This document shows, in pieces, positions 3,072 through 58,953 of a DNA stretch of 64,000 nt. Position numbers and translations under genes: made by a program. Numbering within the stretch: the first letter of the stretch is position 1; every line of letters starts with the position of its first letter. Origin of the DNA: Eledone cirrhosa. Its lineage: Eukaryota. The stretch lies in NCBI GenBank assembly GCA_964016885.1, contig OZ024746.1:56544001-56608000 (forward strand). Direction: 5' to 3'. The notes under the pieces were generated by a model. That model made no database searches. It was not told where the DNA came from and saw nothing but the letters and a program-made list of their open reading frames with translations.

Positions 3072-4768
<1,697 letters not shown>

Positions 4769-5035
4769 TATATATATATATATATAGCTGGCCGTCTATT
4801 TGTCAGAGTCGTCAGTGTTTTTGAGACTGGGTTCAGATCTCTAAATTAAGAGTTCAAAATACGCATAGGTACACTACATATTTCTTCCTTTCGGGGGGGG
4901 GGGGGGGGGGGTCAATAAAAAAAGTTATTAGGATCAGCCTCTTTCCTACAGGCGGTCATATTCAAATTCCTTAACGAAAGGATGGTAAACACCAACGCCA
5001 TTTTACATTGCGTACGACAGTGATGTATAATCGGG

Positions 5036-9241: not shown

Positions 9242-9280
<39 letters not shown>

Positions 9281-9285
<5 letters not shown>

Positions 9286-10700
9286 ATAAATGCTCTGAAA
9301 TAGCGATATATATGTGAATATAGACATAGAATATTCGAAAATATTCTGTATGTTTATAATAAACATTTTGAAGACCTAATCGCTATAGAATAGAATACGT
9401 CACGTATTACAATTAGATTCTCGATAAAAGCAAGGGAAGTAATCTACGCGTTTCATTCTTATTAGAAATCTTCAGGACTACATATCCAGTGCTTTTATCG
9501 AGAATGACACAGCTAGAGACTTATAGAATACTTAGCTGTGTACAGGAACTGGTTTGAAAGAGCGGTTGCCGGTCCGGCAGAAATTAGAAATTGGAATAAA
9601 TGCTCTGAAATAGCGATATATATGTGAATATAGACATAGAATATTCGAAAATATTCTGTATGTTTATAATAAACATTTTGAAGACCTAATCGCTATAGAA
9701 TAGAATACGTCACGTATTACAATTAGATTCTCGATAAAAGCAAGGGAAGTAATCTACGCGTTTCATTCTTATTAGAAATCTTCAGGACTACATATCCAGT
9801 GCTTTTATCGAGAATGACACAGCTAGAGACTTATAGAATACTTAGCTGTGTACAGGAACTGGTTTGAAAGAGCGGTTGCCGGTCCGGCAGAAATTAGAAA
9901 TTGGAATAAATGCTCTGAAATAGCGATATATATGTGAATATAGACATAGAATATTCGAAAATATTCTGTATGTTTATAATAAACATTTTGAAGACCTAAT
10001 CGCTATAGAATAGAATACGTCACGTATTACAATTAGATTCTCGATAAAAGCAAGGGAAGTAATCTACGCGTTTCATTCTTATTAGAAATCTTCAGGACTA
10101 CATATCCAGTGCTTTTATCGAGAATGACACAGCTAGAGACTTATAGAATACTTAGCTGTGTACAGGAACTGGTTTGAAAGAGCGGTTGCCGGTCCGGCAG
10201 AAATTAGAAATTGGAATAAATGCTCTGAAATAGCGATATATATGTGAATATAGACATAGAATATTCGAAAATATTCTGTATGTTTATAATAAACATTTTG
10301 AAGACCTAATCGCTATAGAATAGAATACGTCACGTATTACAATTAGATTCTCGATAAAAGCAAGGGAAGTAATCTACGCGTTTCATTCTTATTAGAAATC
10401 TTCAGGACTACATATCCAGTGCTTTTATCGAGAATGACACAGCTAGAGACTTATAGAATACTTAGCTGTGTACAGCTACACAGCTAAGTATTCTATAAGT
10501 CTCTAGCTGTGTCATTCTCGATAAAAGCACTGGATATGTAGTCCTGAAGATTTCTAATAAGAATGAAACGCGTAGATTACTTCCCTTGCTTTTATCGAGA
10601 ATCTAATTGTAATACGTGACGTATTCTATTCTATAGCGATTAGGTCTTCAAAATGTTTATTATAAACATACAGAATATTTTCGAATATTCTATGTCTATA

Positions 10701-10704
<4 letters not shown>
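9281..10704 (-). mobile_element. Tandem array of 310-bp HHR-bearing monomers (3.85 copies) plus 228-bp inversion; retrozyme-like
   Basis: TTGGAATAAA at 9281, 9591, 9901, 10211, with no differences seen between copies. 10477-10704 is inverted. Embedded in (TA)n. Confidence 0.92.
10514..10602 (+). ncRNA. Type I hammerhead with extended stem I; minus-strand copies at 9417-9505, 9727-9815, 10037-10125, 10347-10435
   Basis: GUAGUC-CUGAAGA-U-UUCU(aaua)AGAA-U-GAAA-CGC-GUA|GAUUAC, enclosed by a perfect 16-bp helix AUUCUCGAUAAAAGCA/UGCUUUUAUCGAGAAU. Confidence 0.92.
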
Positions 10705-10787
<83 letters not shown>

Positions 10788-18962: not shown

Positions 18963-19037
<75 letters not shown>

Positions 19038-19062
19038 TGTAATAAACAACATAAGGCAATTA

Positions 19063-19122
19063 TTCCATTTACCAGTGGTTTCTTAAAAGCAAAAGATTTT
19101 GCTTTCAATCATCAGAATGAAA
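19063..19122 (-). ncRNA. Type I hammerhead in fold-back insert 19031-19357; mutated plus copy at 19200-19260
   Basis: Minus strand: UUUCAUU-CUGAUGA-UUGAAAGCAAAA/UUUUGCUUUUAA-GAAA-CCACUG-GUA|AAUGGAA. The plus copy has CUGAUUA. Confidence 0.85.
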
Positions 19123-19356
19123 AAATCCTGGTCTGTTTATTAAATTTGGATTTTAAAAACCGTTTTTAATATCCAAATTTAATAAACAGACCAGAATTAT
19201 TTCATTCTGATTATTGAAAGCAACATTTTTTTGCTTTTAAGAAACCACTGGTAAATGGAATAATTGCCTTATGTTGTTTATTACATAACTATTAAGCTCT
19301 GTTACCTACATAGAGCACTCTTTTTTCCTGGACTTTTCCGACGGAATTACTTCATT

Positions 19357-19837: not shown

Positions 19838-19895
19838 TAAATGATTGGAATGTTACCTTGCCTTCGGATTGTCATTTTGATATATATATATATAT

Positions 19896-21462
19896 GGATG
19901 TGTATATAATGTATTTTGCAATACACTTTATGCTTAATTAAAAGCATTTTGAAGACCGTAAGCTATTGTTTTAAAGTAGTGACAAATTCACTCACTTTGA
20001 TCTCAGCAAACAGGGGAGATGAGCCGACATGACATGTTTCGCTTTTGTTGAAGCTTATCAAGGCCAACTACCCCGCCTGTCTACTGAGATCAATGATGTT
20101 ATATTCTTATAGAAATCTAGTAAATAATCAGGAGCTGATTATGCAGAGCGGTTGTTGGTCAGGCAGAAATTAAAAATTAGAATTGGAGCTCTGAAATAGC
20201 AATATATATATGGATGTATATATAATGTATATTGCAATACACTTTATGCTTAATTAAAAGCATTTTGGAGACCGTAAGCTATTGTTTTAAAGTAGTGACA
20301 AATTCACTCACTTTGATCTCAGCAAACAGGGGAGATAAGCCGACATGACATGTTTCGCTTTTGTTGAAGCTTATCAAGGCCAACTACCCCGCCTGTCTAC
20401 TGAGATCAATGATGTTATATTCTTATAGAAATCTAGTAAATAATCAGGAGCTGATTATGCAGAGCGGTTATTGGTCAGGCAGAAATTAAAAATTAGAATT
20501 GGAGCTCTGAAATAGCAATATATATATGGATGTATATATAATGTATATTGCAATACACTTTATGCTTAATTAAAAGCATTTTGGAGACCGTAAGCTATTG
20601 TTTTAAAGTAGTGACAAATTCACTCACTTTGATCTAAGCAAACAGGGGAGAAAAGCCGACATGACATGTTTCGCTTTATCTCCCCTGTTTGCTGAGATCA
20701 AAGTGAGTGAATTTGTGACTACTTTAAAACAATAGCTTACGGTCTTCAAAATGCTTTTAATTAAGCATAAAGTGTATTGCAAAATACATTATATATACAT
20801 CCATATATATATTGCTATTTCAGAGCTCCAATTCTAATTTTTAATTTCTGCCTGACCAACAACCGCTCTGCATAATCAGCTCCTGATTATTTACTAGATT
20901 TCTATAAGAATATAACATCATTGATCTCAGTAGACAGGCGGGGTAGTTGGCCTTGATAAGCTTCAACAAAAGCGAAACATGTCATGTCGGCTTATCTCCC
21001 CTGTTTGCTGAGATCAAAGTGAGTGAATTTGTCACTACTTTAAAACAATAGCTTACGGTCTTCAAAATGCTTTTAATTAAGCATAAAGTGTATTGCAAAA
21101 TACATTATATATACATCCATATATATATTGCTATTTCAGAGCTCCAATTCTAATTTTTAATTTCTGCCTGACCAACAACCGCTCTGCATAATCAGCTCCT
21201 GATTATTTACTAGATTTCTATAAGAATATAACATCATTGATCTCAGTAGACAGGCGGGGTAGTTGGCCTTGATAAGCTTCAACAAAAGCGAAACATGTAT
21301 GTCGCCTTATCTCCCCTGTTTGCTGAGATCAAAGTGAGTGAATTTGTCACTACTTTAAAACAATAGCTTACGGTCTTCAAAATGCTTTTAATTAAGCATA
21401 AAGTGTATTGCAAAATACATTATATATACATCCATATATATATTGCTATTTCAGAGCTCCAA

Positions 21463-21468
<6 letters not shown>
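19896..21468. mobile_element. Palindromic array of 316-bp HHR monomers (about 2.5 copies minus, then about 2.5 copies plus)
   Basis: GGATG unit start at 19896, 20212, 20528. Strand switch near 20676. TA tracts on both sides. Confidence 0.92.
20921..21017 (+). ncRNA. Type I hammerhead with U3-A8 core; copies at 21237-21332 (+), 19997-20093 (-), 20313-20409 (-)
   Basis: GGCC-UUGAUAA-GCUU(caacaa)AAGC-GAAA-CAUGUCAU-GUC|GGCU, with outer helix UUGAUCUCAGUAGACAGG/CCUGUUUGCUGAGAUCAA. Confidence 0.85.
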
Positions 21469-21537
<69 letters not shown>

Positions 21538-22596
21538 ATCGGAGTCGGGACATTTAGAGTAAGAGAAGAAGGCATATATGTACATATACATACATATATT
21601 TATATTTATACATTATATATGTCCCTCTTCCTTCATGCACTGCTGACGATGTTTAATTCTTATTTTCTCCCTATCTATTGAGTGTTCATTTGTAAACGAT
21701 ATATATCGGATACATTAAATAAGAACTGCGTTAGTTAAATACGTACACATAGACTAACAGATACATGATACTATTTATATACGTACAAGTATATATTCGT
21801 GACTACACAAATAATATTTATCTCTAATTTCCTCTGCATATATCATAGGGTTCTCAGAAGCCCGATGAACATATCCCAGAGCTCTCTGGTTCTTTCAAGA
21901 TTTGCAAATCGTTCAGCAGTGACACTAACTCAAATCATACTGCCATGAAATAGTCTATATAGAAATTTGCTTGATGATCATTTGATTAACGTACTCATTT
22001 GAGTAATAAAAATTGGAAACATCGGCTGGAAATGCTAAATGTTATAGAATCCGAGCTTGGCTGGTTATATTTAATTGATGGTAGCTACAAAACATAGTTT
22101 TAGCATAACCTAGGTGCATATGAAAAGATATATATACATATAAAATATGGTTATATTCAATAAAAATATGGGCAAGCCTCTTTGTTAAAGAAAAATAAAT
22201 GTTTGCAATTAAAATAATTCATTATCTTTATATTCCTTTGTGAATATATCAGAGATTTGCCAGTAAGCTCTAAAAATGTCACAGCGCTGTTAATCTTTCA
22301 TTAGTGACTATAACACGAAGTCTATATACAGCTAACTCATTTTTTTTTTATGCATCCTACACGTGTAAAAGATATAGGGATAAGAAGCTGAATATGCATT
22401 TGGAATCTTTAAGACCGCTTATTTACAATAAATTATAACTTTACCAGTTACACACAATTGTTGATAAACCGTCTTAAGGAATCCAAATGCATTTTCAACT
22501 TTTTATATAAACACATTTACGATTACACGAATATGCAGTGGTTGTTAGGTTCTAAGAAAAATTCTGCGAATAAACGGGACCGCGAATGCCGCGGTT

Positions 22597-23402: not shown

Positions 23403-23865
23403 GAGAGATGTAAATAGGGAAAAAAAAAACGATTTTTTTCTGGGTTAGAAAATGTTTAAAACAACATATTTTACTTTGTGTGAAGTGTTAGGGTATTAGT
23501 TAATGTATTTATTAATTAACAATAACATTGATTTATTTAGTGATTAATTTATTTATTTAAAAAGTGTCAATTACCGGTTTCAGCATTTTATGCCTTATCA
23601 AATTATGTGAGTGGGAGAGAAAAAAAGGGGAGAAATTTTATTGGTATAAAATGTAGGAGAAAAGATAAGGTGATGTTCAACATGCTATTGAAATGGGAAA
23701 TAAAGAATAATATTATTTACAGGCATAGTTCTTGAGGATAAGCAGTTCAAAAAGTGTTATTATGGGAAGTGGGCTTAGAGAAGTTGATTCATCATGGCTC
23801 CATAATGGATCAACTTCTCCCTATTTACATATATGTATATATTCAAACTCGTGTGCTCTTTCTTC

Positions 23866-23896
<31 letters not shown>

Positions 23897-24074
23897 TTCG
23901 TTTCTAAATTTGTTTAGTAAGATTTTTTATCTGAAAACCTGTGTGGAAACCGATATTGTTATGTATATATATATTTACACACATAAACATTTATACATAC
24001 ATACACACACATATAACCATTTATATATAGATTCATATATTAATACATGAATCTATATACATACATCTGTATAT

Positions 24075-24145
<71 letters not shown>

Positions 24146-25127
24146 GTGGAGAAGGAGCACACGATTTGGAATATATACATATATGTAAATAGGGAGAAGT
24201 TGATCCATGATGGAGCCATGATGAATCAACTTCTCTAAGCCCACCTCCCATAATAACACTTTTTGAACTGCTTATCCTGAAGGACTATGCCTGTAAATAA
24301 TATTATCCTTTCTTTCCCATTACCATATCATGTTCCACATCAGCTCTTTTTTCTTACTTCAAAAACCTTGTTTGTAAATAATATTATTCTTTATTTCCCA
24401 TTTCAATAGCATGTTGAACATCACCTTATCTTTTCTCCTACATTTTATACCAATAAAAATTCTCCCCTTTTTTTCTCTCCCACTCACATAATTTGATAGG
24501 GCATAAAATGCTGAAACCGGTTATTGACAATTTTTAAATAAATAAATTAATCAATAAATAAATCAATGTTATTGTTAATTAATAAATGCATTAACTAATA
24601 GCCTAACACTTCACACGAAGTAAAATATTTTGCTTTAAACATTTTCTAACCTAGAAAAAAAATCGTTTTCTTTTCTCTCTATTTACATATATCTATCTAT
24701 CTCGCACTCTCTCTCTCTCTATATATATATATACATTTATATATATATAGGATTACATGTGCAATTATTTTCAGGTTTGAATATAAAATATGTATGTGTA
24801 TGTAAGTGAAAGGGACACCATGCAGTAGATCCTTTTGTAGTCTTAACCTTGAATGAGTTGTTGAAGCCAAATTTCCCCCGGACATCTTCTTGTGAAGTGA
24901 TTTAATCTAAAGGAAATATGTTAAGAAAAAAATAAACTGGAACAATTGCAACAACACCTATATCCGAAACGTTAACTGTATCATCTCCAGCAGTAGTCGC
25001 AGTATTTTGTTTCAGCATTGATATATGTTGCGATAAAATAAAAAAAACTCTATAAAAACTTCCTGTATTTCCGCTTACAAAGTACTTGCAAATCACAGTA
25101 TAAATTCCGAACAACTCTCATACATTA
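22946..25127. repeat. Diverged inverted repeat with about 930-bp arms (22946-23870 / 24143-25127); likely an older PLE inversion
   Basis: The arms are reverse complements with scattered substitutions (mirror ORFs 23114 vs 24697, 22981 vs 24902). One HHR per arm. Confidence 0.85.
23568..23606 (-). ncRNA. Minimal type I hammerhead with U3-A8 core; mutated plus copy near 24488-24527
   Basis: Minus strand: AAU-UUGAUAA-GGCAU(aaa)AUGCU-GAAA-CCG-GUA|AUU. Confidence 0.7.
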
Positions 25128-39948: not shown

Positions 39949-39988
39949 TCCTTTACCGGTTTCGCAGTTCTTCTGCTTTTCAAAAGGA
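39949..39988 (-). ncRNA. Minimal type I hammerhead with U3-A8 core; degenerate copy at 19492-19530
   Basis: Minus strand: UCCUU-UUGAAAA-GCAG(aagaa)CUGC-GAAA-CCG-GUA|AAGGA. Confidence 0.82.
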
Positions 39989-53589: not shown

Positions 53590-54362
53590 AAGTTACGGCC
53601 CTTTATAATCCGAGTTGAAATACCACCGTGGTTAACTTTGCCTTTCATCCTTAAGGGGTCGGTAAAATAAAGTACCTGTAATACACTGGGATCATTGCTG
53701 GCCTTGTGCCAAAAGTAGAAACAATTATTATTAGTAGTAGTACGAGTAGTAGTTGGGCCGTGGAGTGGCAGTAACGGAGGAGGTTCGGTCACCATGCTTT
53801 GTAGCATAGATTTACGGCCCTTTACGATCTGAGTTGAAATCCCACTGTGGTTAACTTTGCCTTTCAGCTTACGGTGGCGGTAATATAAAATACCAGTCCC
53901 GTATTGGGTTTGATTTAATTGACTTTCCCCTCCTCCCTAATTGCTGGCCTTGTGCAAAGAAAGCATTATTATTAGTAGTGGGGGATTGGCAGTATCGGTA
54001 GAGGGTCGGACGTTATCCTTTGACGCATAGAGTTACGGCCCTTTCCCTTCTGAGTTCAAATCCCGACGAGGTCAACTTTTCCTTTCATCCTTACGGGGTC
54101 GATAAAATAAAGTACCAGTAATGTACTGGGTATTTGCTGGACTTGAGCCAAAATTAGAAACAATTATTAGTGGTGGGGAATTGGCAGTATCGGTAGAATT
54201 TCGGACGCCATGCTTTGCAGCATAGAGTTACGCCCCTTTATAGTCTGAGTTCAAATCCCGCTGAGGTCACTTTGACTTTAATGCTTACGGAGGTCGATAA
54301 AATAAAGCACCAGTAATGTACTGAAATAATTGCTGGCCTTGTGCCAAAAATAGAAACAAATA
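53590..54362 (+). mobile_element. Four head-to-tail MetaSINE-like copies
   Basis: Copies at ~53590-53730 (5'-truncated), 53760-53965, 53980-54170 and 54173-54362, linked by ATTATTAGTAG. Confidence 0.87.
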
Positions 54363-54683
54363 TTAGTAGTGGTAGTAATAACAATATTAGTATTATTATC
54401 ATCATCATCATCATCATCATAATCATCCTCATCACTAGAATATCCATTATAGCCATCGTTGAGGCCGTTCTGACAATAAATCAATAACAGCCACTTGTCG
54501 CCACCAAAGACAATTTATTACGGAATAAAACATTGCATAAATGCTTTACATTCTGTTGATAACGTTTTAACCATAATCTGCTACTCCTCATACGACTATT
54601 TACCATTACCATCATTCTCAACGTCAAGTTCGCGTCATATTCCTCATTAAAGTCATCGTCATTATCATCAACTTGATCACCAC

Positions 54684-57707: not shown

Positions 57708-57785
57708 TATATACATATATATATACATATATATATATATATATGAAAATAAACCAAAGAAGCCTTCAATACATCAAAAGTCTTT

Positions 57786-57832
57786 ATTAGCCAACAATGT
57801 TTCATCGTATTAAGGACTCATCAGGGCAATTA
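57786..57832 (-). ncRNA. Minimal type I hammerhead ribozyme in PLE 3' UTR
   Basis: Minus strand: GCC-CUGAUGA-GUC(cuuaauac)GAU-GAAAC-AUU-GUU|GGC. Confidence 0.75.
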
Positions 57833-58007
57833 AAGCTATAAGAAGCACTATCAGCCAATACAAGCCGAAATATATACACACTCACAAATACAACAGAAGC
57901 ATATAATATACAATTATATATACATATACATATACATACAGATAAACATAAACATACATACACACACATATATATACACATATATACACACACGCACACA
58001 TATATAT

Positions 58008-58062
<55 letters not shown>

Positions 58063-58259
58063 CACATATACAGACATATACGCAACACACATGCACACAC
58101 CCAAAAATAAATATCTAAAAATAAGAAAATTTGGTATGTGAAGGGTAAGGCAGAAAGTAGGGGGGGGGGGGAAATTAAGGAAAATAAATGACATAGGAAA
58201 AGGTTTAAATATAAGGGGAGATAAGGGAGAAAGAGAATACAAGAGTACAGAACGAGGAT

Positions 58260-58953
58260 TCAGCCTGGTAAAAAAAAACGTAGTGGAAGTAAAGAGCAGA
58301 GAAGGTGTTCAAGTGGTTGAGTTATCGTAGGAATATCAATCCAGTTACAGATAAGATGCGATTTCAGTTGAGGACAACATCTGAAGATCTCGGTCTTTGA
58401 GTTCAGGCAAGCAGAAGTGGCTTTCATGTTTTGTAAAATCTTATATTTTTCCGTGGTACACAAAGAACAATTCTTTGTGCCTCTTTGGTATTCCCTCGAA
58501 TGGTCTAAAATAGACCAATCGATAGAGTACGGGATGTTTTTCTCCTTGAATTCCCACACCTTACCTGCGAGGGCCGTTACTGTACTTTTATCGGAGTGCT
58601 TAAAAGAAGCGACATGTGCATAAAACCTGGTTTTAAACTTGTCCTGGATCATGCCAACATATGCTCACTCCTGGCTGGCTGGTTGTTGATTAAACGTGTC
58701 ACTTTGGCCTCTTAAAAAACGGATTTGGTGTTACATTTGCCCTGTAATGGGCATTCATCCGGCTTTCTGCAACTGCATCCTGCATTTGTTCTCGTACGAT
58801 TCGAATTAGTGATCTTAGACTTCAATGATGGGCAACAAGAATAACTGATATTAACTACATTTCTATTAAATATCTTATAATATCTATGATTAGGAGGAAA
58901 ATGTTTTTCTAAGAGATCAAGGAATTTCCTTCCTACATTAGTTTTGACAGTTA
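58260..58953 (-). pseudogene. Disrupted PLE ORF fragment (GIY-YIG endonuclease)
   Basis: TAA at 58712-58714 replaces the Tyr of the first GIY-equivalent motif (VF*). Frameshift near 58665 before YVG. Confidence 0.85.

Follow-up and report, generated by a model that had tools for sequence, protein, structure and literature searches.

Paired short and long ends in head-to-head palindromes of a putative 316-bp retrozyme family from Eledone cirrhosa

In L1 twin priming both strands of the target prime on one RNA and the resulting inversion is joined with microhomology; the internal start is variable, the first cDNA stops where the second started and the two segments do not overlap. For PLEs, the origin of insertions that combine tandem and inverted copies has been named as unresolved (PMC8557442). 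Hammerhead cores with U at position 3 and A at position 8 are already published for PLEs, in the Cercyon elements of Schistosoma (PMC4209133), and that report was the sole match for U3-A8 in the main texts of papers readable without subscription, where a search for C3U together with G8A gave none. Cleavage by PLE hammerheads is weak in vitro (PMC4209133) and one of them required protein for cutting (PMC11167929); Poseidon, a PLE, is predicted to act as a dimer (PMC11167929). The case that PLEs mobilise retrozymes has been built on co-occurrence and on pLTR homology, and eight of nine Xenopus retrozyme dimers were left uncut in vitro (bioRxiv 10.64898/2026.07.22.740005).

The stretch of DNA analysed here, which we call the window, comprises 64,000 nucleotides of Eledone cirrhosa (contig OZ024746.1, positions 56,544,001 to 56,608,000 of the forward strand). 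A preliminary description had placed in it, at 19896..21468, a 1.6-kb palindromic array of 316-bp monomers with about 2.5 units in each direction. This stands, with the ends refined to 19886-21469 (Table 1): Tandem Repeats Finder reports 316-bp arrays at 19886-20677 (2.5 copies) and 20664-21469 (2.6 copies), each at 98%, and self-alignment gives a single inverted match of 1,561 columns (98.0%, 25 mismatches, six gap openings). The end at 19886 is blurred by TA, the other being 21469; both lie in (TA)n, where a target-site duplication is unreadable. The arms differ in extent, the right arm alone carrying a tail of 26 nt and the left arm reaching ~23 nt further at the centre. Units are numbered from the first base past the predicted hammerhead cut (window position 20989), and position 140, at which the left arm ends, falls within the unit's own (AT)5. 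The array contains no ORF of 120 aa or more, and so none with the RT plus GIY-YIG of an autonomous PLE. Judged by its sequence, the locus is a single young insertion, and the 316-bp non-coding element it contains is abundant.

Table 1. Positions of the array, its flanks and its internal features in the window.
Feature	Position	Strand	Description
Left (TA)n target	19880..19895		Short 3' end of the element (own ATATATATAT) fuses into the target
Left arm	19886..20677	- (sense on minus strand)	792 nt; begins at unit position 297, spans two full units and finishes at the short end, position 140
Intact hammerhead, left arm	20022..20065	-	Core boxes and stems
Left-arm inner units with two common substitutions	20225..20590	-	Two units
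Intact hammerhead, left arm	20338..20381	-	Core boxes and stems
Centre	20659..20677		Half-hammerhead stem III palindrome (20659-20669), 8 further left-arm bases, 2-nt overlap (20676-20677) with the right arm
Right arm	20676..21469	+ (sense on plus strand)	794 nt; starts at unit position 4, just past the cut site; long end at position 166
Block conserved with the 310-bp sister family	20805..20869	+	65 nt; unit positions about 133-197
Long distal stem round the hammerhead	20921..21018	+	~18 bp; compensatory changes across subfamilies
Intact type I hammerhead	20949..20992	+	Stem I 4 bp, core U3-U4-G5-A6-U7-A8-A9, stem II 4 bp, GAAA, palindromic stem III
Damaged hammerhead	21265..21307	+	Loop III lacks 1 nt; stem I has a G-to-C change
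One-sided tail	21444..21469	+	26 nt, right arm only; PLE tail signature
Right (TA)n target	21470..21539		From sequence and repeat finding

Four full UUGAUAA hammerhead cores are present in the array, two per strand. The intact stems and GUC site first described for the motif are found in three of the four hammerheads (stems I-III, GUC) and are lost from the fourth, the damaged copy of Table 1. The boxes N3 U G A N N8 A, GAAA and UH occur in this order together with helices I-III, with the predicted cut after 20988 in the copy at 20949..20992, and on this order and pairing the U3-A8 motif of the family is a putative type I hammerhead. Folding of the 116-nt ribozyme region gives a z-score of -6.6, which comes mainly from the long flanking stem; the 66-nt core alone has a z-score of -1.4. 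Rfam, at its gathering threshold, returns zero matches in the window and likewise misses the canonical-core hammerheads that lie elsewhere in it.

The UUGAUAA core is retained in 194 of 218 aligned copies, eight of the remainder being reverse self-matches, and the 3-8 pair is U-A in 34 of 36 subfamily rows. A genome pattern that permits C or U at position 3 has 2,397 matches with A8 and 4 with G8, each of the latter being U3-G8. C3U had been read as compensated by G8A, and the family bears this out: A8 is fixed throughout, and C3-G8 is found in a 63%-identical sister family of the same architecture. Two-sided changes in stems I, II and III and in the 18-bp distal stem occupy 33 cells across 36 copies of different subfamilies, compared with 9.6 in shuffles; as these rows are related, the excess is taken as support and carries no p-value. 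Sliding controls are far lower. The letters of stem III vary among subfamily copies and its palindromy stays, as dimer folding would predict; two copies of the segment co-fold at -11.9 kcal/mol, whereas a single copy has no fold. The predicted lowest-energy fold of the monomer differs from the active fold (-47.7 versus -42.3 kcal/mol, a gap of 5.4 kcal/mol). At locus L040 all four cores, in both arms, carry A9G; a core-mutant template was thus inserted, which hints, from the sequence of this copy, that cis cleavage is dispensable for insertion. The core itself is already known; a family with fixed U3-A8 beside a sister with C3-G8 offers a natural pair for cleavage assays.

Transcription from either side had been expected to yield ribozyme RNA as well as long dsRNA. 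Prediction agrees with the second part, 1,530 of the 1,584 bases of a read-through RNA being paired across the centre in a single 790-bp hairpin. It disagrees with the first, as the hammerheads are predicted to be buried, one of them with all 44 of its 44 bases included in the pairing. A read-through RNA would accordingly be a source of dsRNA and not of ribozyme, barring a transcription start inside an arm.

A 20-mer from the unit has 2,805 exact matches in the 3.0-Gb assembly, compared with 0 for a control. The first 100 of these matches fall in 46 loci, all of which were retrieved. Thirty-four of the 46 are palindromes, every one arranged 5'-to-5' (head-to-head) and most of them in (TA)n, and the other 12 are one-armed; the array in the window is not special within its family. 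With one local duplicate set aside, 33 of the 34 were scored. A second set of 31 palindromes was drawn from the best matches of the unit, a choice biased towards long, young arms; the duplicates L006, L007, L019 and L020 were excluded, L095 was substituted for L009, and L016, L022, L029 and L036, best-match loci outside the 31, have no second arm in the retrieved stretch. L029 (1-8801) is a tandem array of the 316-bp family of at least 8.8 kb, with units of ~310-316 bp.

Arm ends were scored as short at unit positions 120-150 (nearly always 140) and as long at 161-177 (mostly 166, 171 or 173). One short end is combined with one long end in 29 of the 33 pattern-picked palindromes and in 26 of the 31 best-match palindromes, or 55 of 64 together, and in these 55 the long end lies 21-37 nt beyond the short one. 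Two of the remaining palindromes are short/short, none is long/long, and seven have a truncated or unclassified end. For the 57 classified palindromes the departure from free choice of ends has a p of about 2e-14. Both outer flanks are TA-rich by a strict filter in 41 of the 64, and the centre differs at each locus. Most of the older copies in 12 further regions fit the pairing; L164 looked long/long under lenient scoring. The same pairing is seen in all ten sister-family palindromes with both ends visible (14 loci examined) and in all six palindromic copies of an intact 1,217-aa PLE. The 316-bp element combines a short non-coding tandem unit, one type I hammerhead motif in each unit and dispersal at high copy number, and in terms of sequence it is a putative new family of animal non-LTR retrozymes.

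The 310-bp sister family has a canonical C3-G8 core, the same frame and the same short and long ends. It is larger and very young, and is represented in the window at 9280-10714 by 3.9 units followed by an inverted arm; the two arms of this copy measure 1,196 and 237 nt and are 100% and 99.6% identical to their own unit. The block conserved between the two families (Table 1) spans both end sites and reaches ~25 nt beyond them, which fits internal initiation, and the pattern they share has 17,975 matches in the genome. We infer that the block is the recognition site of a helper protein. Other repeats of related appearance lie in the window. A 483-bp tandem array at 3169-4770 (3.2 units), probably another retrozyme, bears on the minus strand a C3-G8 hammerhead whose stem II is long; a short inverted piece lies at the 5' end of the array. 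An older palindrome at 23596-24498 has (TA)n inside it and a U3-A8 hammerhead motif at 23601 (minus strand), and an additional U3-A8-like motif is found at 39983. A 195-bp repeat is present in two copies at 53968-54372; we take it to resemble a tRNA-headed SINE.

Four features of EN+ PLE insertions recur in the 316-bp family: a fixed 3' end, 5' truncation, an adjacent head-to-head inverted copy (34/46) and a one-sided tail (55/64). Around four PLE families of the genome, with frames of 1,217, 714, 822 and 796 aa, no DNA similarity to the unit was found beyond hammerhead-core matches, and the dependence of the 316-bp element on PLEs therefore rests on this footprint; the genome has PLE families beyond the four surveyed. 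We take these elements to be PLEs, and assign their clades, by their RT and GIY-YIG motifs and their structure. A Pfam search returned a single weak RVT_1 match and none to the full-length PLE frames. The intact element with the 1,217-aa stop-to-stop frame (L136, 552-8886) is very young, stands in tandem at 4,117 bp and has many near-identical copies; its frame contains an asparagine-rich insert along with a GIY-YIG at the C terminus, and a motif scan of it found no canonical hammerhead. A spacing of 3.25 kb between two hammerheads of the 316-bp family, followed up as a lead to the helper, proved to be an old array split by other insertions. Adjoining the array, at 19031-19356, is a small palindrome with a one-sided extension that represents the hammerhead-bearing end of the 714-aa PLE family (88-93% identical to L144). 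A GIY-YIG fragment of the same PLE family (58260-58664, minus strand) lies within 57740-58900, and the hammerhead end beside it, at 57824, belongs to the 822-aa family.

Our preferred reading, which we regard as probable, is that the 316-bp retrozyme is moved in trans by a PLE, the two strands at a (TA)n cut being primed on one RNA from two fixed starts. Tandem copies would be transcribed, and the hammerhead, probably as a dimer formed via its palindromic stem III and perhaps aided by protein, would free monomers that may circularise. The PLE protein, probably also a dimer, would sit on the conserved block at about positions 133-197. Both (TA)n strands would then be nicked, one cDNA starting from about position 140 and the other from 166-173; the two would run back past the cut site on circular or uncut multimeric RNA, come to unrelated stops and be joined by microhomology or repair, followed by fill-in. 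At the present locus the left arm would probably have gained or homogenised one unit later.

Arms of the pattern-picked set run on beyond the cut site for over 10 nt in 42 of 58 cases, which argues against a cut linear monomer as the template. No excess of arm stops was detected at the cut site itself (rate ratio 1.2, p 0.35), and the start of the right arm 4 nt past it at this locus may be chance. Arm length does not differ significantly by end type. The 35 of 64 junctions that have neither gap nor insertion overlap by 2.1 nt on average, where 0.77 is expected, and the overlap is 3 nt or more in 12 of the 64 (p 0.001); gaps or inserted bases occur at the other 29, some of which may reflect divergence from the reference unit.

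The best-placed alternative, albeit an unlikely one, is self-priming: a cDNA begun at the long site folds back, is copied to its own (AT)5 and anneals to the other end of the target. Fold-back has been proposed for the inverted repeats of PLEs (PMC3846280). It would explain both the shared haplotype of the arms and the pairing of long with short ends, and the present locus suits it, being nearly symmetric (an offset of ~23 nt) with the turn beside the stem III palindrome; mirror-specific variants also exist, and many junctions carry insertions. In its simple form, however, the short-ended arm has to be nested in the tailed arm, whereas among the 55 short/long loci it is the short-ended arm that extends further in 32 and the long-ended arm in 17, with the two within 20 nt of each other in 6. 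Centres within 15 nt of phase symmetry number 8 of 55, against 5.4 by chance, and the nearly unmutated sister copy in the window is strongly asymmetric in its arms. Later asymmetric deletion of an unstable centre could possibly have scattered the junctions. A further point against fold-back is that both tail ends correspond to true RT starts of Poseidon in vitro (PMC11167929).

The arms might also derive from two RNAs of one donor locus or subfamily, or have been made alike by later gene conversion between them, with no single molecule shared; we consider this improbable. Variants common to both arms of a locus number 205 in 11,955 sites; this is 4.5 times the mean of 2,000 permutations, 0 of which reached it. 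Most of them are subfamily markers, as two RNAs of one subfamily would also show, and some occur in one sampled locus only. L094 contains two subfamily unit types within one arm, and local repeats of private variants, as in the left arm here, show that conversion or duplication does occur. Conversion is not rapid, given 252 single-unit variants that are unshared, and locus-only variants found in both arms (e.g. 59G in L023, 57T in L035, 287G in L040 and 158C in L084) count against this reading too, within a sample of 64 of the family's loci. The earlier proposal of one template for both arms therefore holds in the sense of one template lineage.

The further proposal of multi-round copying is not supported for a single monomer. 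At positions covered at least three times per locus, 70 variants are present in all units and the 252 just mentioned in a single one, 10 appear mirrored in the two arms but are missing from some units (e.g. L032, L056), 9 occur in the two arms without mirroring and 20 recur within one arm only. Some loci thus have unit-specific variants in both arms, and the mirrored, unmirrored and one-arm classes indicate a contribution from heterogeneous multimers, from template switching or from later conversion. These partial-unit classes are not what a clean monomer circle predicts. At the present locus two private changes recur in two units of the left arm (Table 1), and no other place in the assembly has the 50-nt stretch that carries both. 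This repetition probably arose by local duplication or conversion once the element had inserted, and the symmetry of '2.5 plus 2.5' units may in consequence be partly secondary.

A repeat propagated at the DNA level, either a fold-back DNA transposon or a satellite with a dead hammerhead, is very unlikely. The four PLE families yielded no helper and tandem expansion of DNA probably took place at this locus, but fixed 3' ends, variable 5' truncation, locus-specific centres and covariation that follows an RNA structure are unexpected for such a repeat, and the footprint is the same as that of protein-coding PLEs. A read fold-back or assembly artefact is scarcely credible: no contig of the public runs spans this palindrome, but its arms differ non-randomly (the 25 mismatches, private variants repeated on one side), the tail is confined to one arm, the flanks are unmirrored, the long/short rule is genome-wide and contigs from two public runs of one sample contain many left- and right-arm joints of other copies.

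Priming of both target strands on one circular or uncut RNA is the account that best fits the unnested arms, the shared variants, the read-through and the behaviour of Poseidon in vitro. Two-strand priming, as first suggested for this locus, is in this way retained as the best-fitting model, on the fixed short and long ends and arms that do not nest. Tentatively, it may even be that PLE integration is itself a coupled two-site reaction, in which a dimer on one RNA uses the short start for one strand and the long start for the other and copies the RNA round and round. Poseidon in vitro uses the same start sites on both strands, so that strict pairing lacks an in vitro counterpart (PMC11167929). 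In the main texts open without subscription we found no strict end pairing with a shared template and no fitting report of Penelope with twin priming, and retrozyme combined with inverted and target-primed led to PMC8557442 only. Were the coupled reaction true, the 'optional' tail and inverted repeat of PLEs would be what it produces by default, and it could be demonstrated on a minimal substrate, a 316-nt RNA that carries a 65-nt recognition block.

The U3-A8 core, and the PLE form with tandem and inverted copies and a one-sided tail, are both already in print (PMC4209133, PMC8557442). What the 316-bp family adds is a protein-free element with the full PLE footprint and rules that can be counted (each insertion has a short and a long start, its arms share a template lineage, and copying runs through the cut site), which makes a direct genomic argument for mobilisation by PLEs. 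It is also a small substrate with which to separate two-sided priming from fold-back. The comparison with twin priming does not extend to the L1 type: both arms here cover the same sequence and thus overlap, they begin at two fixed starts, and their 5' stops are scattered.

The Cercyon hammerheads of Schistosoma show the same core covariation (about 1,300 matches there), are of type I with a palindromic helix III, and also occur as opposite-strand pairs 100-700 bp apart (PMC4209133). They differ in that helix II is long and helix III nearly absent (PMC4209133), whereas in the 316-bp family helix II has 4 bp and the palindromic helix III 5 bp, there is a long distal stem and the units stand in tandem. 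Poseidon of Anolis resembles the family in its AT-rich target, in the cleavage and extension of both strands and in two adjacent internal start sites 3' of the hammerhead that set the tail; unlike the 316-bp element it is autonomous, and its insertion has no need for hammerhead cleavage (PMC11167929).

Animal non-LTR retrozymes (PMC7229834; bioRxiv 10.64898/2026.07.22.740005) share with the 316-bp family a non-coding tandem unit of ~300 bp with low GC, one type I hammerhead per unit, dispersal as dimers to multimers and a proposed dependence on PLEs. Their core is C3-G8 and that of the 316-bp family U3-A8; head-to-head palindromes with paired ends are the norm in the latter, and the word 'inverted' is absent from the main text of PMC7229834. 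They are known as linear and circular monomer RNA and have homology to PLE pLTRs, whereas the 316-bp family is known from DNA alone. With EN+ PLE insertions (PMC8557442, PMC3846280) the family has in common partial tandem copies, an adjacent inverted and 5'-truncated copy, a tail at one end, (TA)n targets and a hammerhead near the end. The published tail of 30-40 nt compares with 26-33 nt in most copies of the 316-bp family, which has no ORF, and the pairing of ends, in contrast to these published insertions, is here counted and nearly strict.
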